Positions 31,687 to 51,892 of a DNA stretch of 64,000 nucleotides are shown piece after piece. Location: contig JBBDZX010000005.1 of assembly GCA_040899905.1 (NCBI GenBank), forward strand, positions 698,199 through 762,198. Reading direction: 5' to 3'. Below the pieces are notes generated by a model that saw only the letters and a program-made list of their open reading frames with translations, made no database searches and was not told the origin of the DNA. Position 1 is the first letter of the stretch; each line of letters begins with the position of its first letter. Position numbers and translations under genes: made by a program. Source of the stretch: Anaerolineales bacterium. GTDB taxonomy: Bacteria; Chloroflexota; Anaerolineae; Anaerolineales; E44-bin32.

Positions 31687-33357
31687 CTACGAGGTCGCCA
31701 GGCCACCGACCCCGGTGTCCGTCGACGCCCAGCTCAAGTGCTGCCAACCGACGTCGAGAGCTGTCCGCAGAGTCGACGGGTCGGAAAACAGCATCTTCAG
31801 ATACGTCACCATGGGGCCGGGGCGGAAAGCCCATTCCCGGAAGGCCCGTTTCTGCCAATACAACAGGCGCTCTGCGGACAGTCCCGGATAGTCAAGGACG
31901 GTCCCTTTGTCCATGTCCACCTGCTCCCAGCGGGTCCCTTCGCGGAACCACTTGTTCTCCACGACCTCGAAGTAAAACGGGGTTCCGGGGTAAGGGGCCG
32001 CCACGTGAAACAGGGCGATATCCAGTGGCAGTTTCTTGGCGAAGTCGATGGTCTGCCGGATGGTCGCCTCCGTCTCGCCCGGAAGGCCGATAATAAAGTA
32101 GCCCCAGTTCTTAATCCCCGCCTGGCGAGCCCACTTCAGCCCCCGCACGGCCTTGTCCGGGTAGGCGCCCTTGCGGGCGTGCCGGAGAATCTGCTCGTTG
32201 CCGCTCTCAATCCCCCAGGAGATCAGCCAATTCCCTGCCTCGGCCATGAGATTCAGCATTTCATCGTCGACGTAATCCACCCGGCTGTTGCAGGTCCAGC
32301 GCAGTCCGACCTTCTCGGAAATCATGAGCTTACACAGATTCATGACCTGTTCGCGATTGACCGTAAACAGATCGGCGTACATGTGGATGTTGTTGATCCC
32401 CTGCTTCTTCAAGACCCAGAGTTCTTCCACAATCTTCTCCGGCGACCGCAGGCGGGCGGAGAACTGGTAGCTGACGTGCTTGATGCAATACGTGCAGCCC
32501 GCGGGACACCCCCGGCTGGTGACGATGAAGGTGAAAGGACCTCGAATGAGCGGCATGCGATACTTCTGGAGCGGCAGGAGATCGTGCATCGGAATCGGAA
32601 GGTCATCGAGGTCCTGGATGAAGGGCCTCTGCTCATTGGTAACGATCTCATTGCCGCGGCGCCAGACCAACCCGCGGATCCCTTCCAGGATTGCCGTTCC
32701 GTCCTCGGTGAGAGACGGGCGGTACGCCGGGTCGTGCAGGTCGAAGATCCGTTGGATCTCTGGCGGGCGTTGGTCTGTCTTGCCCTCTAGATGGTCGACA
32801 AGATCCCGCAGGGTGAGATCCGGCTCTCCCAGCAGGACGAAGTCGAGCGCGGGAAATGGTCTCATGGTCTCCCGAGGGATAGCCGTGACATGGGTGCCAA
32901 AAGCGATGGTGAGGGCGCCCCGGGCCTTGGCCAGGAAACAGCCGTACATGTCGTTTTCCAGCGTCGGCGCGGTCACCTGGGTCAGGTAGTACTTGGGCTC
33001 GTACTTCTCCAGAAGACCCGCAAACTCCGGCCACCTCATGCGCTCGGCGTTGGCATCAACCACCGCCACCTTGTACGTCGGGTGTAGCAGGGCGGCCATT
33101 TGGGCAAGCGAGACCTGCGGCCAAACCATGTTTTCCCGCGTCCGCCGTCCGACCCGATGCTGGGTCCGAATCCACAATCCGCCATCGGGGGTCGGGGGGT
33201 TGACCAACAGCACGTCCACCGCGCCCTCCGGCCGGGGGCGATTTAGAAGAACGTGGCGCACGATCTCATCCGCGTTGGGGAAATTCGGCGCGGGCAGTTT
33301 CGGGAGCCTTCGGGCCCCGAGATTGAGACGGCGGACTTCCGCTTCACCGAGTGGCAT
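31687..33357 (-). CDS. B12-binding-domain radical SAM enzyme (class B, methyltransferase-like)
   Basis: N-terminal VDVLLVNPP...VAVVDAN cobalamin-binding-like domain and radical SAM cluster motif SRGCPAGCTYCI (CxxxCxxC). GGAGG lies 6 nt before the ATG. Confidence 0.9.
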   Translation of the reverse strand: MPLGEAEVRRLNLGARRLPKLPAPNFPNADEIVRHVLLNRPRPEGAVDVLLVNPPTPDGGLWIRTQHRVGRRTRENMVWPQVSLAQMAALLHPTYKVAVVDANAERMRWPEFAGLLEKYEPKYYLTQVTAPTLENDMYGCFLAKARGALTIAFGTHVTAIPRETMRPFPALDFVLLGEPDLTLRDLVDHLEGKTDQRPPEIQRIFDLHDPAYRPSLTEDGTAILEGIRGLVWRRGNEIVTNEQRPFIQDLDDLPIPMHDLLPLQKYRMPLIRGPFTFIVTSRGCPAGCTYCIKHVSYQFSARLRSPEKIVEELWVLKKQGINNIHMYADLFTVNREQVMNLCKLMISEKVGLRWTCNSRVDYVDDEMLNLMAEAGNWLISWGIESGNEQILRHARKGAYPDKAVRGLKWARQAGIKNWGYFIIGLPGETEATIRQTIDFAKKLPLDIALFHVAAPYPGTPFYFEVVENKWFREGTRWEQVDMDKGTVLDYPGLSAERLLYWQKRAFREWAFRPGPMVTYLKMLFSDPSTLRTALDVGWQHLSWASTDTGVGGLATS

Positions 33358-33399
33358 GCCTGGCCTCCGGGCCGCCGTCGGCCCCGCTTGCTGGATCGT

Positions 33400-34596
33400 T
33401 CACGCGGCATTCCGATCCCGGGAGATGAGATCCTCCCGCTGACTGAGCTCCGCAAGCACGCGGAGGACGATCCAAGAAATCACGAGCTGGACGCCTACCA
33501 GAAGGAACATTGCGCTTCCCAAAAGGTAGAGCCAGAGCCGCTCCACGCTCCAGCCCTGCACACCAAGGGCCAGGCTGACCGCGGCGATGGTGCCACCTCC
33601 CGCCAGAAGCGCGACCCCCACCCAACCGAACGAATTCTCGAGGGGGTTCTTGAAAATAGGGCGGCCGAACAGACCCTGGCGCATCGGACGCTTGTGGAAT
33701 AGGGACACCAGGTAATTGAAAGTTGCGCCCAAGGAGAAAAGGCTGATCCCGCTAACCCCGCACACCATTCCGGTGTACAGGGCCACTACCCCCCAAGACC
33801 CAAGGATGGTCCGACCTGTCAGCCGGGCCGCCACCAGCCCAATCCCAACCGCGACCGCGATCCCCACCCCGAGGAGCCCGAGCGCTCCCAGGATACGGAC
33901 AGGATTGTAGCTCAGGGCGGTCCAAAGGATCGAATGCAGGAAAATCGAACCGTCCCGCACGACGCTCAATTTCGAGCGGCCCACGCGCTCGGCATATGGA
34001 ATTGGGACTTCGGCCATGCGGATGCCTTCGTGGAGAGCTCTCACACTCATGACCGGGGTCAAGTTTAGACCATCTGGAAGGGGATACAGACGGTCAACGA
34101 TCTCCCGCTTGAAGACCCGCATCCCGCTGGCACTGTCCGTCACCCGATGGTGCCCGAACGCCGTCAGCAATCCGGCAAAGAAGACGTTCCCCAACCGCCG
34201 CGTGATGGGCATCTTGGTGGCGGATCCTGCCATGCGGGATCCGATGACGAGATCCGCCCCATCGATGGCCAGCGCACAAAGCTGGGGGAACCATTCCGGC
34301 GGATAGGTGCCGTCGGCATCCAAAAAGCCAATCAGTTCGCCTCTCGCCCTGGAGAACCCGGTCTTGAGGGCCGCGCCATAACCTCGGTTCTGCGCATGCC
34401 GGACCAACTGGACCGACGGAATCGCTTCGGCCACGGCCGCGGTCTGGTCTCGAGACCCATCGTCGACCACCAAGACCTCGAGGTCATCGACGCCGACGCT
34501 TGCGAGATTCGCGCGGGCCGCAAGCACGCGCTCCGCAATCTCGGCAATTCCCTTCTCCTCATTATATGCGGGGATCACCACGGACAGAGTGGTCAC
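33400..34596 (-). CDS. GT2 polyprenyl-phosphate glycosyltransferase (ArnC/GtrB/DPM1-like) with C-terminal TM segments
   Basis: [32 protein letters not shown] (DxD), and four C-terminal TM helices. The GTG start overlaps the upstream stop (GTGA 34593..34596). Confidence 0.9.
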
Positions 34597-35351
34597 TCGG
34601 ATGGGTCCTTCTGCGCGTGATACACGGTCTCGGCGCGGGGCGGATCCCGGCCGTCAATTGCCTTCAGGACTCGGGCTGGCGCACCGCCCACGAGGCTGTG
34701 GGGGGGCACGTTCTTCGTCACCACCGACCCGGCCGCAACGACGGCGCCGCGCCCGATCGTTACGCCGTCCGTGACAATCGCCCCGGCGCCGAGCCAAACA
34801 TCATCCTCAATCTCGATCCCTTGGGCGGTGATCCCCTGCTCGACAAAGGGACGGTCCGGATCCGAGTACACATGATCCACGGCCAGTATTTGGACCAACG
34901 GCGAGGTATACACGCGATCGCCGACGCGGACCCCGCCTTGACCGCGAATCACCGTGTATTCCCCGATGAGCGAATCCCTGCCGATCCGAATTCCGGAGTG
35001 CGGTAAGTTCCGAAAATTGTAGACGTGGAGAATCGCGCCGTGCATCACGATCGTCCCGGAGCCGATCTCGACCCCTCGGGGACAAGCGTGCACGTACACA
35101 CCTTCGTCCAGATAACAACCGTGACCGAGCGATATATGGTCTGCGAACCGGAGTCGGACGCCTCGCTCAACGGCGGCGTGGCCGTCGATTTTCAGGATGA
35201 TTCGATAGAAGACATCCCGCAGTCCGATCCCGACCAGGGTTGGTATCCATCCCAGGCATCCGGTCAGGAATTGCTCCAGAAGGTAGCGCCCCGGGCTCGA
35301 CGCCTGACGCTGAAGGTAGAGGCCAAGGCCGGTTCGCCGGCAAGGAGTCAT
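34593..35351 (-). CDS. Left-handed beta-helix (hexapeptide repeat) acyl/acetyltransferase
   Basis: Hexapeptide repeats [44 protein letters not shown], similar to WcaF/LacA-like sugar O-acetyltransferases. Confidence 0.8.
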
Positions 35352-35481
35352 CTCGTTTCAGGCACGATGAGCAAGCGATCACACCCCCGGGCAGCCTGGT
35401 GCCAGGCGAGCTCCGCCCTTCCGACTGGTGTCGGATCGGCCCCCGCTCTAATCGCGCGGCCCGGACTACGCCTTGCCGGGC

Positions 35482-36036
35482 CTAGGCCCGGGCCCGCGTT
35501 GTAGGATCGATTGAGCCGGCGTCCAGCTCAACCGCAATGGGGCGGTTCCGAAGGAGCGCCAGCAGCACCAGGACGCGCTCCCTTCCCGAAATATACGTGT
35601 CGAAAATCCCCTGATACCCTTCGAATGGCCCTTGGCGGATCCAAACGGTGTCACCTCGCCGCAGCCGGAACAGGAAAGATTCCTGGGCTTCATTGGCGAC
35701 ATCCAAACGCTTCTGCAGAGAGTGCATCAGGGACTCAGGCACCGGGGCAGGCTCCTCCCCGAACGTGACCAGCCCGATGGCATAGGGCATCCAGCGAAAG
35801 GTTTGCGGGCTGAGAGCACCCAGGTCCACCTGGACAAAGAGGTAGCCGGGGAAGTAAGGCAAGATACGGCGCGCCCGGGGATTCACTGGCCGGACGCGCA
35901 GGCGCGGATAGAAGACTTCCAGCCCCAGACGCTGCGCCTGGCGCGCGACTACTTCTTCCTTCCGCGGTTTGCTTCTCAGGGCGTACCAGAGGAGCCCAGC
36001 CGTCTCGGTCGGGTGACCTTGCCCTAGCGATCCCAC
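35482..36036 (-). CDS. Specialised NusG paralog (RfaH/LoaP/UpxY-like antiterminator)
   Basis: NGN motif LLWYALRSKPRKEE...FPGYLFV and KOW motif GDTVWIRQGPFEGYQGIF. It is the first gene of the long minus-strand run. The start is uncertain: GTG 36036 chosen; the longest ORF reaches 36132. Confidence 0.75.
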   Translation of the reverse strand: MGSLGQGHPTETAGLLWYALRSKPRKEEVVARQAQRLGLEVFYPRLRVRPVNPRARRILPYFPGYLFVQVDLGALSPQTFRWMPYAIGLVTFGEEPAPVPESLMHSLQKRLDVANEAQESFLFRLRRGDTVWIRQGPFEGYQGIFDTYISGRERVLVLLALLRNRPIAVELDAGSIDPTTRARA

Positions 36037-36390
36037 CAGCAACCCTGCTCCCTCCGACCGCCGCCCATGGCGGTGGTCTGGCTCCCTCGGCTCCGAAATC
36101 CAGGTCCAGGCCGCGCGCGTTCCACCGTGCAACGCACCAGTCTGATCCCGGCTCGCCGCCCACCGGATGAGCCGGTTCGGCCCCTCGGGGTCTGCATCGC
36201 ACGCCCTGGAGGCTGAAGACCGAGAACTATTCGGTTGTTGTCAAACTCTGGAGTAGCGCCTGAGGGGCCGGTCTGGCTGGCAGTTGGCGCTTCCTCCGCT
36301 CCCACTTGTAACGGAGAGAACTACATAATTGCGGCCGGCCCTTGGGAAAAAATCCTAATCTCTTCGGCCCTAATTGTGCGGATTCTTCTT

Positions 36391-37174: not shown

Positions 37175-37840
37175 GGGTCGCGACGGGGTTAACCCTCGAG
37201 ATAATTTAGGGTAGCCCCCAAGGCATTTCCCGTCAAGGTCACTATCGTCCCGTATGTACCGGGACAACGAGTCAGGGGACCCGGATGTTACTCGGGTTGT
37301 CCCTCTGCGGGACACAGGATCAAGCTCAAAAATCCAAAGGTCCAGCCTGGACAAGGCCGGGCTAGACCTCTCGGAACTCCTCTCGACTTCCTCGTCCTCA
37401 CCAGACTCCTGCTGGTAGCCTTCCGCGCCCCCGGCCGACGCCGGTCGGATCCGGGGTTTGCGAAACGGCGACGCACTCGTAGAAAGGTCCGATCGGGTAA
37501 TTGGGCAGGGCGAATTGGGTCAGCACCCATCGGTCCGCCAGGTGGTCGTAGAACACGATGGGATCACCGTCATTGGTCGATTGGCACGGCCCCCGGACTG
37601 CCCGTGCGGAATCTCTGGGGTATGCCATGCGCGAGCAAGGCGAAGGCGGGGCCACGGATACCGGGAAGCAAGGACGGCCGGCTTCCCTTGGGAGGTCGCC
37701 GAGGCGCGCCAGACCGCGACCGCAGAAGGATGGCGGGCCCACCGGTATGGGGCGGAGCCCCAGACGCTAGGGTCGTCCGGAGGACGTAAGCTGGGGGCCC
37801 ATTTCACCCTCGCCTCCCTCAAGACCAACAGTCAGTCGCG

Positions 37841-37890
37841 AGCAATCAGCCGCCACCTTGGAACTTCCTCCAAGCTGGCGGCTGATTGCT
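37841..37890 (+). terminator. Very strong hairpin followed by TCTTCTT, immediately upstream of the exonuclease gene
   Basis: AGCAATCAGCCGCCA-CCTTGGA-ACTTCC-TCCAAG-C-TGGCGGCTGATTGCT forms a ~21-bp stem with a 6-nt loop. It could be a plus-strand terminator/insulator or an operator. A TATACT -10-like box (37906..37911) sits 6 nt before GTG 37918. Confidence 0.5.
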
Positions 37891-37917
37891 TCTTCTTAGC
37901 GCAGGTATACTCACCCC

Positions 37918-38520
37918 GTGACTCAGGTCCCGATCGCTTCACGACGCCAGGATTCCGGCGGTTACATCTCCGTCGACATCGAGGCCTCGGGTCCGACCCC
38001 GGGCCTATACTCGATGCTGGCACTCGGGGCCTGCCGGGTGGACGATCCGGCCCGAAACTTCTATGCCGAGCTTCAACCGACCTCGATGCAATCCGATCCT
38101 GAGGCGATGGCTGTACACGGCCTGTCCTTGCAGATGCTGCAGCAATCCGGGCGGCCTCCGGCGGAGGTCATGGGTGCGTTCGATCGATGGTTGAGCGAGG
38201 TCTGCCCGCCGCCGGCTCGCCCCGTTTTCGTCGCCTACAACGCACCGTTTGATTGGATGTTCGTGCATGATGCGTTCCTGACCGCATTAGGACGGGACCC
38301 ATTTGGCCATACCGCTCTCGACATCCGGGCCCTGTACGTCGGCTGGTCGGGACGCCCGTGGCCCGAGATCCGTTTCGACGAGCTGGCCGAACGCTACCTC
38401 GGCTCGCGCCGCCTCACCCATAACGCCCTCGAGGACGCCCTCGCCCAGGCGGAGATCCTGCAAGGGTTGATGGACGAGATGCGATCTCGGACCGCCGTCT
38501 CGACGACAGATGACGAATGA
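37918..38520 (+). CDS. DEDDh-family 3'-5' exonuclease (DnaQ/RNase T-like), single domain
   Basis: Exo I ISVDIEASGP, Exo II VAYNAPFDWMF, Exo III THNALEDALAQAE (H-x4-D). Confidence 0.8.
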   Translation: MTQVPIASRRQDSGGYISVDIEASGPTPGLYSMLALGACRVDDPARNFYAELQPTSMQSDPEAMAVHGLSLQMLQQSGRPPAEVMGAFDRWLSEVCPPPARPVFVAYNAPFDWMFVHDAFLTALGRDPFGHTALDIRALYVGWSGRPWPEIRFDELAERYLGSRRLTHNALEDALAQAEILQGLMDEMRSRTAVSTTDDE

Positions 38521-38554
38521 CGGATGGCTGGAGCCTACTGGGCAGGAGAATCGC

Positions 38555-39868
38555 ATGACCTCTGAATCTACGTCACGGGAAGAACTGAGCCGGATCCTCG
38601 AGTCCGCCCGCCGGCTGGGGGTGGAGATGGACGAGGGAGCCGCCCTGCAATGGCTGGCGGCCATGAGCGCCGGCGATGGGGGCGGCGACGTGGTCGTCGA
38701 CTCCCGGACGGGTGTATTCGGGCACCGTATCAGCATGCTCGATTTCACACCGGGCGATCTGGAACGCTTCCGGGCTGTGGGCCGGCTGGTCGAGTTCGCC
38801 GACGAGCCCGGCGTCGTCGAGACCGCGCTGGCGCTCTCCGGCTCGGCGGCCCAGTCGAAGATCCAGTCCTTCCCGGGGGACTGCGACTTCTTCGAGCGCG
38901 TCAACATCAAGGCGCCGACTCGCGACGAAGCCTGCACCACTCTGGCGCGGTTGATGCGCGACAAGGCCCTCGCCACGGCCCGCGGCGATACGTACCAGTT
39001 GATCGAAGTCAAGATGGGGTCCTACCCCGAGGACATGCTTCACGACGGACAGCCGGTCAAGGCCGGCGCGCCGACAGGCTGGCGAGTCGACGAGATCCGT
39101 GCCGGCCGCATCGATGGCTTCCGTCCCGACGGATCGCCGGTTTCGGTCCTTTGGGAGTCCGCCGCCCTCGATCCCGGTTGGTGCAAACTCGACTGGGTCG
39201 TCGCGGACTCGCTGCGGGGCCAGTTGGCGAACGCGAGCAATATGCTCGACGTCACGTGGGAGGCACCCGATGGGACCATCACGCCCCTCGACGGGTACCT
39301 CGACCCCTATTTCCAGGAGGTGTACCTGGAGGCCGAATCCGTCCCGATCTTCTCGAAACTCGCCAAGCATGTCTCGGCCGACGCTCTTGACGAGTATGTG
39401 CAGCAGCTCGAGAAGGAGGTCAACAAGTACCTGAATAAGGACGTCAACTACGGCAAGGCCGCCAAACGCATGTACAACATCTTCCGGCTGACCGGCCGCT
39501 ACGGGGAGGCCGCCTTCATCCGCGAGCTGTTCGATGAGCCCGCCACCGTCCTGTATCAAGTCTGGTCGCTCATCCGCACCCTCGACGACGCCACCCGCGG
39601 CGGAGCCTCGATACCGATGCCCACGATCATCGGCCACGCCGACCGCCTGATCCAGGCCGTGATCGACTCCCTGGAAGGCGATCAGGAGGCCGAGATCGTC
39701 CGACAGTTGAGGCTGTTGCGCGAGAGCCTGCGCGCGACCGGGTCGGTGGAAAGCCAGCCGGTCGATGCCGCCCGCGCCCAGGTCGTTAACATTGTCAACA
39801 ACTTCTTCTACGAGCGACTCACCGCCGTGCCGTCGATCAAGAGCTACATTGAGGGGACACACGAGTAG
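38555..39868 (+). CDS. Uncharacterised protein with a Pol-beta-superfamily nucleotidyltransferase-like motif
   Basis: ALALSGSAAQSKIQSFPGDCDFFERV fits hG[GS]-x9-13-Dh[DE]h (nt 38840..38887). A possible third acidic strand is CKLDWVVAD. The C-terminal half is long and helical. AGGAG lies 6 nt before ATG 38555; ATG 38510 would overlap the exonuclease by 11 nt. The CDS call is solid; the function is tentative. Confidence 0.5.
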   Translation: MTSESTSREELSRILESARRLGVEMDEGAALQWLAAMSAGDGGGDVVVDSRTGVFGHRISMLDFTPGDLERFRAVGRLVEFADEPGVVETALALSGSAAQSKIQSFPGDCDFFERVNIKAPTRDEACTTLARLMRDKALATARGDTYQLIEVKMGSYPEDMLHDGQPVKAGAPTGWRVDEIRAGRIDGFRPDGSPVSVLWESAALDPGWCKLDWVVADSLRGQLANASNMLDVTWEAPDGTITPLDGYLDPYFQEVYLEAESVPIFSKLAKHVSADALDEYVQQLEKEVNKYLNKDVNYGKAAKRMYNIFRLTGRYGEAAFIRELFDEPATVLYQVWSLIRTLDDATRGGASIPMPTIIGHADRLIQAVIDSLEGDQEAEIVRQLRLLRESLRATGSVESQPVDAARAQVVNIVNNFFYERLTAVPSIKSYIEGTHE

Positions 39869-39883
39869 GTAGGAATCGGCTGC

Positions 39884-39918
39884 CAGCACTCAGGACTCAG
39901 CACCCAGCGTCCAGTTGG
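39884..39918. repeat. Heptanucleotide tandem repeat (5 degenerate units, CAGCACC family)
   Basis: cagcact caggact cagcacc cagcgtc cagttgg, in the spacer between 38555..39868 and 39944..40432. Confidence 0.7.
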
Positions 39919-51248: not shown

Positions 51249-51892
51249 CCGGTCCACCATCTCCACCCATTCGCGTCATGCTGGTGGACGACCACGCCAT
51301 GGTGCGGCGCGGCCTGGCCACTTTCTTGCGGGTGTTCGATGACCTGTTGCTCGCGGGCGAAGCCGAAAGCGGCGAAGCCGCGATCCGGCTCTGTGCCGAG
51401 GTCACGCCTGACGTCATCCTCATGGATATGGTTCTGCCGGGCATGGACGGCGCGGCCACGACCCGCGTGATCCGACAGGAATTTCCTCACACCCAGGTCC
51501 TTGCGCTGACCAGCTTCAAAGAGAAGGAACTTGTCAAGAATGCCCTGGACGCCGGAGCCATCGGCTACCTCCTCAAAGATGTCTCCGCCGATGAGCTTGC
51601 CCGGGCCATTCGGGCCGCCCATGCCGGACGCTCCACCCTTTCGCCGGACGTCGCCGAGGTCATGGTTCAAGCCGCGGGCCAACCGCCCAAGCCCGGCCTC
51701 GACCTGACGGACCGAGAGCGCACCGTGCTCGCCCTCATGGTGGAAGGACTCAGCAACACCCAGATTGCCGGAAGGCTGACGGTCAGTCCTTCCACCATCA
51801 AGTCGCACGTGAGCAACATCCTCAGCAAGCTGGGAGTGTCCAGTCGCACCGAAGCCGTGGCCCTGGCGCTGCGTCACGGACTCGTCCCCTGA
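51245..51892 (+). CDS. NarL/FixJ-family response regulator
   Basis: IRVMLVDDHAMVRRGL, VILMDMVLPGMDG, and LuxR HTH LTDRERTVLALMVEGLSNTQIAGRLTVSPSTIKSHV. ATGA overlap with the kinase stop. Confidence 0.92.
   Translation: MTGPPSPPIRVMLVDDHAMVRRGLATFLRVFDDLLLAGEAESGEAAIRLCAEVTPDVILMDMVLPGMDGAATTRVIRQEFPHTQVLALTSFKEKELVKNALDAGAIGYLLKDVSADELARAIRAAHAGRSTLSPDVAEVMVQAAGQPPKPGLDLTDRERTVLALMVEGLSNTQIAGRLTVSPSTIKSHVSNILSKLGVSSRTEAVALALRHGLVP

Follow-up and report, generated by a model that had tools for sequence, protein, structure and literature searches.

In a 64,000-nucleotide stretch of DNA (the whole stretch analyzed, hereafter the window) from a metagenome-assembled genome (MAG) of the order Anaerolineales (Chloroflexota), we characterized a two-gene module in which an exonuclease of the Cap18 family (gene 1) lies directly upstream of a nucleotidyltransferase of an apparently undescribed family (gene 2). 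The module is real and is not a defense island; it is best explained as a bicistronic operon of housekeeping grade that is vertically inherited in the class Anaerolineae. We tentatively propose that its two enzymes make and degrade a non-canonical, probably 2'-5'-linked, nucleotide product that may serve physiological signaling. The features on which the following paragraphs draw are (alignments A2 and A3 comprise nucleotidyltransferase and exonuclease sequences, respectively):

37841..37890, no strand assigned: hairpin with a 15 + 6 base pair stem and a 6-nt loop (fold energy, shuffles)
37906..37911, + strand: -10-like box TATACT, 6 nt 5' of the GTG (comparative box count)
37918..38520, + strand: predicted Cap18-family DEDDh exonuclease, 200 aa (Pfam, PADLOC, PDB 7T2S, A3)
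38545..38548, + strand: Shine-Dalgarno site GGAG, 6 nt 5' of the gene 2 ATG
38555..39868, + strand: predicted Pol-beta-fold nucleotidyltransferase, 437 aa (AlphaFold2 model, Foldseek, conserved motifs)
38840..38887, + strand: catalytic motif G96-S97-x11-D109-x-D111 (conservation in A2, AlphaFold2 strands)
39005..39007, + strand: putative third catalytic carboxylate, E151 (conservation in A2, strand 147-156)

The product of gene 1, described in the earlier note as a 200-aa single-domain DEDDh exonuclease, carries the motifs D20-I-E22, N108-A-P-F-D112 and H168-x4-D173, and all five catalytic residues (D20, E22, D112, H168 and D173) are invariant in A3, which includes Cap18. The DEDDh assignment is therefore confirmed, and database comparisons narrow it to one family. 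Pfam yielded a match to RNase_T (8e-8) and weak matches to Rv2179c-like exoribonuclease, and the best NCBIfam model reached only 3.5e-10; the PADLOC model PDLC00753, labeled "Effector/Exonuclease", matched over the full length at 3e-58 (next model 3e-20). Among PDB sequences, 7T2S matched with an E value of 3.9e-38, as compared to approximately 1e-3 for the DnaQ epsilon subunit. The 7T2S entry is Cap18 of E. coli upec-117 (PMC11981726, PMC12345164), a predicted exonuclease tied to hundreds of cyclic-oligonucleotide-based antiphage signaling systems (CBASS), and all exonucleases of this family described to date are CBASS accessories. The window exonuclease shares 41% identity with Cap18 and 45% with the exonuclease of a type II CBASS on a P. 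syringae plasmid, i.e., about as close to these as to its own Anaerolineae orthologs (42-57%). Plasmid-borne Cap18 homologs occur in a type II CBASS operon (SAVED, nucleotidyltransferase, ThiF, JAB, exonuclease) as well as in a type III CBASS operon (purine phosphorylase, WYL regulator, cyclase, an unnamed protein, an ATP-binding protein, exonuclease). Judged by these similarities, gene 1 belongs to the Cap18/CBASS-Exo clade and is not a generic DEDDh enzyme.

According to a preprint (bioRxiv 10.1101/2025.03.04.641389), exonucleases of the Cap18/Exo clade neither bind nor cut single- or double-stranded DNA or RNA and selectively hydrolyze 2'-5' linkages, acting on the intermediate pppA[2'-5']pG and on 2'-5' oligoadenylate, and Exo thereby sets a threshold for cGAS-like signaling; the 2'-5' selectivity is reported for no enzymes other than those of S. 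marcescens (Sm), V. cholerae (Vc) and E. coli (Ec). When the pocket residues of VcExo that have been implicated in 2'-5' dinucleotide binding are placed on the window exonuclease by their offset from the catalytic Asp, an unaligned and thus inferred mapping, P15, V55, D49 and E51 would correspond to P26, V66, D60 and E62; F120 would, by an equally unaligned mapping, correspond to F129, which lies in an invariant P-F-G motif. P26 and F129 are invariant in A3 and V66 is kept in both the window exonuclease and Cap18; for D60 and E62, E. coli Cap18 has no conserved counterparts.

The 437-aa product of gene 2 contains G96-S97 followed, after 11 residues, by D109-C-D111, the arrangement in which the earlier note had seen the hG[GS]-x9-13-Dh[DE]h signature of Pol-beta-fold nucleotidyltransferases. 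Alignment A2, which comprises 32 diverse nucleotidyltransferase homologs and reaches down to 30% identity, bears this out, as the signature residues are kept in 30 or 31 of the 32 sequences (G96 in 30; S97, D109 and D111 in 31 each). A third catalytic carboxylate, for which a check had been suggested, was found at E151, on strand 147-156 of the AlphaFold2 (AF2) model, and is D or E in 30/32 homologs. Residues G155, W176, D232, W235, D246, Y281, R305, Y307 and R311 do not vary in A2. AF2 modeling was first based on a shallow alignment, which gave a mediocre model (predicted local distance difference test score, pLDDT, 71); the second model, built from A2, reached a pLDDT of 89.3 and a predicted template modeling (TM) score (pTM) of 0.87. 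The GS/DxD motif is modeled at the end of strand 88-95 and the start of strand 109-119, and the chain divides into an N-terminal helical/hairpin region (residues 1-85), an alpha/beta catalytic core (approx. 86-258) and a helical bundle (approx. 260-437).

Structure searches with Foldseek support the Pol-beta nucleotidyltransferase fold that had been supposed from the motif alone. The sole confident matches in the PDB were the "new nucleotidyl transferase" structures of Megavirus chilensis Mg662 (probability 1.0; TM 0.50/0.58; E values of 1.6e-6 to 2.9e-6 for 4ams and 4xul); the other PDB matches were scattered nucleotidyltransferase-fold proteins (3wfp, FAM46A, MiD51, AadA) with E values of 0.017 or higher. 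In BFVD, 15 matches fell below 1e-3 (TM 0.5-0.6), and all were proteins of virophages (Zamilon, "V21 virophage-like protein", YSLV5, Qinghai Lake virophage, mavirus) or giant viruses (Mimivirus, Pithovirus, Tupanvirus, Klosneuvirus and Megavirus Mg662), the best being the Zamilon protein V6BPH6 (5.5e-14). These model-based matches point to the gene 2 family as the bacterial counterpart of an otherwise viral orphan family. No CD-NTase (cGAS/DncV-like nucleotidyltransferase), cGAS or OAS was present among the top 50 Foldseek PDB matches of the pLDDT-89 model; OAS1 (1px5) was matched only by the first, low-confidence model (E 0.04, TM 0.14).

At the sequence level, scans of gene 2 against Pfam, NCBIfam and PADLOC gave no family match, nor did Pfam scans of the 32 diverse homologs, and the A2 profile retrieved only noise from PDB sequences (E above 0.5). 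Comparison of A2 by hhalign with two CD-NTases of plasmid CBASS (CdnC and a type II CD-NTase) gave probabilities below 1%. The family is large (6293 matches among 90%-identity clusters; 705 representatives at 50% clustering), every named homolog is labeled "hypothetical", and a literature search for the Mg662 or virophage V21 nucleotidyltransferase found no relevant paper. Overall, the sequence motifs and the model indicate that gene 2 encodes a Pol-beta-fold nucleotidyltransferase of an undescribed family with a predicted intact active site. An MNT/HEPN or AbiE-type toxin-antitoxin identity was considered and rejected, given the length of 437 aa, the large helical domain, the absence of a HEPN or antitoxin partner and the housekeeping-level conservation.

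Homologs from outside Anaerolineae provided some additional observations. In Deinococcus peraridilitoris (CP003382.1; 2798-12025 of the locus retrieved, L092), the gene order is PrsW protease, a 198-aa protein of unknown function, trypsin-like protease, nucleotidyltransferase, a 962-aa PQQ beta-propeller protein (with a 4-nt overlap) and a 596-aa protein of unknown function; in this nucleotidyltransferase an R replaces the third carboxylate. A Thermomicrobiales genome carries the nucleotidyltransferase gene with genes for PrsW and Zn-ribbon proteins, and locus L086 (2296-6329) is also among the contexts found outside Anaerolineae. Two homologs are fusions, i.e., P0174, in which a PQQ propeller is fused to the nucleotidyltransferase, and P0235 (1291 aa), in which AbfB, F-box-associated, lectin and PLAT domains are fused to it.

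Besides the window, 80 GTDB species loci and 14 further loci, obtained through protein look-up, were used to assess the linkage of the two genes; counts refer to the 89 loci with enough upstream sequence to judge. The exonuclease gene was located directly upstream of the nucleotidyltransferase gene, on the same strand, in 62 of these loci, so that the two-gene module proposed in the earlier note is upheld by synteny. Loss of adjacency is patchy over the nucleotidyltransferase tree, and the most diverged pair (38% identity for the nucleotidyltransferase, 44% for the exonuclease) shows a 4-nt overlap of the two genes. DnaG, RpoD, GlyQS and DUF3786 genes are the recurrent neighbors over the 80 loci, with a recurrent arrangement of RpoD-DnaG (minus strand), exonuclease-nucleotidyltransferase and GlyQS (minus strand). 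Among 8 genomes carrying all of the genes compared (6 for RpoD), median pairwise identity was 72% for the nucleotidyltransferase and 61% for the exonuclease, as compared to 66% for GlyQS, 66% for DnaG and 67.5% for RpoD. At least 474 GTDB species genomes, nearly all from Chloroflexota, encode the nucleotidyltransferase. Horizontal acquisition was rejected, as the GC content is flat across this region of the window.

The loci compared also differed in gene content next to the pair. In close relatives (80-83% nucleotidyltransferase identity), a DinB_2-family gene is located directly upstream of the nucleotidyltransferase gene (L082/L083, 4271-7314; L084, 4154-6293); it is inserted between the exonuclease and nucleotidyltransferase genes in L082 and replaces the exonuclease gene in L084. 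A gene for a DUF3786 protein of approximately 230 aa (Pfam 1.4e-41; L044, 7337-8038) follows the nucleotidyltransferase gene on the same strand in 11/80 loci, to which the window does not belong; in some lineages this gene could be a third operon member. One MAG (MFD05942.bin.2.115) carries two nucleotidyltransferase copies on different contigs (L034 and L035), neither with an adjacent exonuclease gene, which could reflect a true duplication or a mixed bin.

The two cistrons differ in their start signals. A TATACT box (37906-37911) is located exactly 6 nt ahead of the GTG (37918) of gene 1, as the earlier note had recorded, and an in-frame TAG at 37897-37899 precludes an earlier start of the exonuclease. 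Across 48 orthologous exonuclease loci, a box matching TATAAT in at least 5 of 6 positions starts at -17 to -11 (mode -12) relative to the start codon in 28 loci, as compared to a background of 1.7% at random positions; several loci present a -10 box with an extended TGn, and only 3 of the 48 have a Shine-Dalgarno-like motif. The second cistron served as an internal control, as a Shine-Dalgarno-like motif precedes the nucleotidyltransferase start in 82/88 loci (in the window GGAG at 38545-38548, 6 nt upstream of the ATG at 38555) and a -10 box at the exonuclease-like distance in 0/88. The pattern fits a leaderless exonuclease cistron followed by a Shine-Dalgarno-dependent second cistron, and the earlier suggestion of a leaderless or very short-leader transcript gains strong comparative support. 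A scan for sigma-70 consensus promoters found no site; as it demands both hexamers, the comparative analysis of -10 boxes is more informative. No terminator was predicted on the + strand between gene 1 and gene 2. With regard to the start of gene 2, which had been placed either 35 nt after the exonuclease stop or overlapping it by 11 nt, only the former is supported. All nucleotidyltransferase homologs are 436-445 aa long and can be aligned from the Met at 38555, which has a Shine-Dalgarno site, and the alternative start at 38510 (452 aa) was rejected.

Whether the module functions in antiphage defense, as the earlier note had suggested as one possibility, was evaluated from gene content and conservation. 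No SAVED, STING, TIR, patatin or transmembrane effector was found in the window or in the 80 related loci, no effector-like gene recurs near the module among these loci, and neither the PADLOC cyclase models nor the Pfam SMODS models matched gene 2. The caution of the earlier note in not calling the pair CBASS thus proved appropriate, given the lack of a CD-NTase signature and of an effector, and its defense interpretation is not sustained, as the pair is conserved like RpoD, DnaG and GlyRS, often adjoins their genes and lies in a region of flat GC content. We searched the literature for a Cap18-type exonuclease with a non-CD-NTase partner in a housekeeping setting and found no such description.

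A possible mechanism can be outlined from these data. Transcription would start approximately 6-7 nt past the -10 box, so that a leaderless mRNA would begin at the start codon of the exonuclease or beside it, and the nucleotidyltransferase, 35 nt downstream of the exonuclease, would be translated from its own Shine-Dalgarno site. The nucleotidyltransferase would condense nucleoside triphosphates into a short product of non-canonical type, for which a 2'-5'-linked oligonucleotide, linear or cyclic, is the most likely form, and the exonuclease would hydrolyze this product or a released intermediate, thereby setting a threshold for, or providing turnover of, an intracellular nucleotide signal. 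Because the pair is conserved like RpoD, DnaG and GlyRS and has no linked effector, this signal would serve normal physiology instead of abortive-infection defense. We consider this account possible, and put it forward with less than even confidence.

The earlier note had left the choice between nucleic-acid tailing/trimming and a nucleotide-signal or defense pair. Enzymes that tail RNA include poly(A), CCA and terminal uridylyl transferases, and RNase T and Orn are trimming enzymes. By analogy, the nucleotidyltransferase could add untemplated nucleotides to RNA 3' ends and the DEDDh exonuclease could trim them in routine RNA maturation or decay; such a core RNA function would fit the housekeeping-level conservation and the DnaG, RpoD and GlyRS neighbors, and the DEDDh class includes both RNase T and the Rv2179c-like exoribonucleases that the exonuclease weakly matches in Pfam. 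We nevertheless consider this account unlikely, as the exonuclease is far nearer to Cap18 (E 3.9e-38) than to RNA or DNA exonucleases (E 1e-3 or worse). The weak Foldseek matches of gene 2 to an A-adding/CCA-type tRNA enzyme (3wfp, E 0.017) and to the non-canonical poly(A) polymerase FAM46A (E 0.066) likewise come with TM-scores of only 0.15-0.18 to CCA and poly(A) polymerase enzymes, and PolyA_pol, poly(A) polymerase or RNA-binding domains were found in 0/32 family members. Because the Cap18 family is reported to be 2'-5'-specific and the enzymes tested neither cut nor bound single- or double-stranded DNA or RNA (preprint cited above), the nucleotide-signal part of the earlier proposal is favored over tailing/trimming; its defense part is not retained.

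Two further explanations deserve consideration. The nucleotidyltransferase might modify a protein or a small molecule (AMPylation, nucleotidylylation of an antibiotic or cofactor, or formation of an alarmone-like derivative), with the exonuclease co-transcribed and acting on a different substrate. The Pol-beta fold does cover protein-modifying enzymes and aminoglycoside nucleotidyltransferases, and small alarmone synthetases were among the very weak matches of the first model, but neither these matches nor that to AadA are significant (E 0.19 or worse). The loci with no adjacent exonuclease gene (27 of the 89), together with the proteases and beta-propeller proteins beside or fused to the nucleotidyltransferase outside Anaerolineae, would also agree with separate substrates; set against them are the retention of the pair, with overlapping genes, down to 38% nucleotidyltransferase identity and the fact that the known partners of Cap18-type exonucleases are nucleotide-condensing nucleotidyltransferases only. 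On balance this explanation also seems improbable. Far less probable still is a minimal or degenerate CBASS-like antiphage system consisting of a very divergent CD-NTase and a Cap18 regulator with its effector encoded elsewhere. It would accommodate the hitherto exclusive description of Cap18-family exonucleases as CBASS accessories, the word "Effector" in the label of the best PADLOC model and the GS/DxD core common to gene 2 and CD-NTases, which hhalign placed in register (non-significantly) for the type II CD-NTase. It is opposed by the missing PADLOC cyclase and Pfam SMODS matches, by the hhalign probabilities below 1% for both CD-NTases, by confident Foldseek matches that include no CD-NTase, cGAS or OAS, by the absence of SAVED, STING, TIR, patatin and transmembrane effectors from the window and the 80 loci, by a nucleotidyltransferase conservation above that of RpoD and GlyRS, and by a vertical-looking pattern with housekeeping synteny and no mobile or defense-island context.

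Several points weigh against our proposal of a synthesis-and-turnover pair for a 2'-5'-linked signal. The enzymes known to make 2'-5' bonds are cGAS, OAS and CD-NTases, and these are not among the confident Foldseek matches of gene 2. No product chemistry is known for the gene 2 family or its Mg662-like relatives, for which no paper was found, and neither a receptor nor an effector that could serve the proposed signal emerged from the window or the 80 loci. For Cap18-type enzymes, 2'-5' specificity has been reported in one preprint, on three enzymes from proteobacteria, and its transfer to a 41-45%-identical Chloroflexota protein is by analogy. In addition, as approximately 30% of the loci (27/89) have no adjacent exonuclease gene and one exonuclease ortholog stands alone, coupling in cis is not obligatory. 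Outside Anaerolineae, the nucleotidyltransferase accompanies PrsW and trypsin proteases, Zn-ribbon proteins and PQQ beta-propellers, including a fusion.

A broader form of the same proposal, which we regard as doubtful, would be that Anaerolineae and scattered Chloroflexota use an unknown 2'-5' second messenger, made by the new nucleotidyltransferase family and degraded by the Cap18-type phosphodiesterase in the course of ordinary physiology, that such a housekeeping pair was the source of the Cap18 module of CBASS, and that the nucleotidyltransferase fold was taken up by giant viruses and virophages (Mg662 and V21-like proteins).

The sequences bordering the module were analyzed as well. The strong hairpin that the earlier note had placed before the exonuclease is present at 37841-37890 (15 + 6 base pairs with a single internal mismatch); a fold energy of -48.4 kcal/mol (z = -7.4) was obtained for its 96-nt context, and 0/200 shuffles equaled it. 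The hairpin occurs as a single copy within the window, and an interpretation as a repeated element of the REP (repetitive extragenic palindromic) or MITE (miniature inverted-repeat transposable element) type was thus rejected. In a 92%-identical relative (L081), a shorter hairpin with 11-nt arms is located 19 nt past the upstream gene. The hairpin is absent from the distant loci compared, and a conserved regulatory RNA was rejected on this basis. Because the window and L081 are homologous from 37874 onward, a point within the 3' arm, the hairpin is probably a lineage-specific, local terminator-like or boundary element outside the module. At the other end, the heptamer repeats noted earlier are present as a tandem repeat at 39884-39908, just past the gene 2 stop (consensus CAGCACT, 3.6 copies, 83% match; Tandem Repeats Finder); the repeat is weak (score 36) and not a conserved part of the module. 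The region 3' of gene 2 folds no better than shuffled sequence (z = 0.3), so that neither the heptamers nor a 3' terminator were retained as features. Rfam and tRNA scans of the region gave no match.

In the window, the module is flanked by genes of ordinary metabolic or regulatory type, i.e., those for a LuxR-type response regulator, a NusG paralog, a glycosyltransferase, an acetyltransferase, radical-SAM proteins, a DCC1-like oxidoreductase, a DAO oxidoreductase and an ABC transporter. At 563 bp, the intergenic stretch that precedes the operon (37355-37917) is unusually long. A minus-strand open reading frame within it (37398-37742, 114 aa) has a protein-like translation (which includes VFYDHLADRWVLTQFALPNYPIGPFYECVAV) and no Pfam match, and may be a gene fragment or pseudogene. 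A minus-strand cluster at 31687-36132 starts with the NusG-domain paralog (35482-36132), followed by a hexapeptide acetyltransferase, a family-2 glycosyltransferase and a radical-SAM enzyme, a layout that resembles that of specialized NusG-type antiterminators (RfaH/LoaP-like) controlling polysaccharide clusters. A second LuxR-type response regulator, encoded at 51266-51883 on the + strand, is 42% identical to a response regulator of L081 and, over the same region, 51% identical to an 81-aa helix-turn-helix protein of L081. Both L081 genes are located upstream of the exonuclease gene, and these similarities suggest a local rearrangement between the two genomes.

The gene 2 family is large, annotated throughout as "hypothetical" and devoid of a Pfam model, yet its conservation in Anaerolineae exceeds that of RpoD, DnaG and GlyRS. 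It thus represents an annotation gap, i.e., an essential-looking enzyme in a major environmental and wastewater clade. The Cap18-type partner suggests that the logic of combining a nucleotidyltransferase with Cap18 may extend beyond antiphage defense. For the orphan Mg662 and the V21-like proteins of virophages, the present result is a first lead toward a function. The pair is also present in cultured strains (e.g., Levilinea saccharolytica KIBI-1, locus L071).

Compared to known systems, the window exonuclease resembles Cap18/CBASS-Exo in being a single-domain DEDDh protein of approximately 190 aa, 41-45% identical and sharing all catalytic residues, whose gene adjoins that of a nucleotide-condensing nucleotidyltransferase. 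It differs in that its partner is not a CD-NTase, in that HORMA/TRIP13, E1-E2/JAB and effector genes are lacking, and in that it is chromosomal, vertically inherited and highly conserved, whereas Cap18 is sporadic on plasmids or islands; the window exonuclease represents a new Cap18-family member outside CBASS. Gene 2 in turn resembles Mg662 (PDB 4AMQ, 4AMS and 4XUL, the last with GTP) and the virophage and giant-virus proteins over nearly the whole chain, including the catalytic core and the C-terminal helical domain. These relatives, however, are viral or virophage proteins of unknown function that are only 10-16% identical to gene 2, with no detectable sequence-level similarity, and gene 2 has an extra N-terminal region of approximately 85 residues and a Cap18 partner. 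With CD-NTases, cGAS and OAS, gene 2 has in common the Pol-beta core, the GS and DxD motifs, the third carboxylate, a helical C-terminal domain and the association with a Cap18-type exonuclease; it lacks sequence or profile similarity to them, a confident structural match, a linked effector and a defense-type distribution. Class II CCA-adding enzymes and poly(A) polymerases differ in that no PolyA_pol head or RNA-binding domain was found in the 32 family members (3wfp, E 0.017, TM 0.18). The folds of both window enzymes also differ from those of GGDEF/EAL proteins (cyclic di-GMP), DisA or CdaA with GdpP (cyclic di-AMP) and OAS with PDE12 (2'-5'-linked oligoadenylate, 2-5A); what the pair would share with these systems is the proposed logic of a synthase acting together with a dedicated phosphodiesterase, at housekeeping-level conservation.

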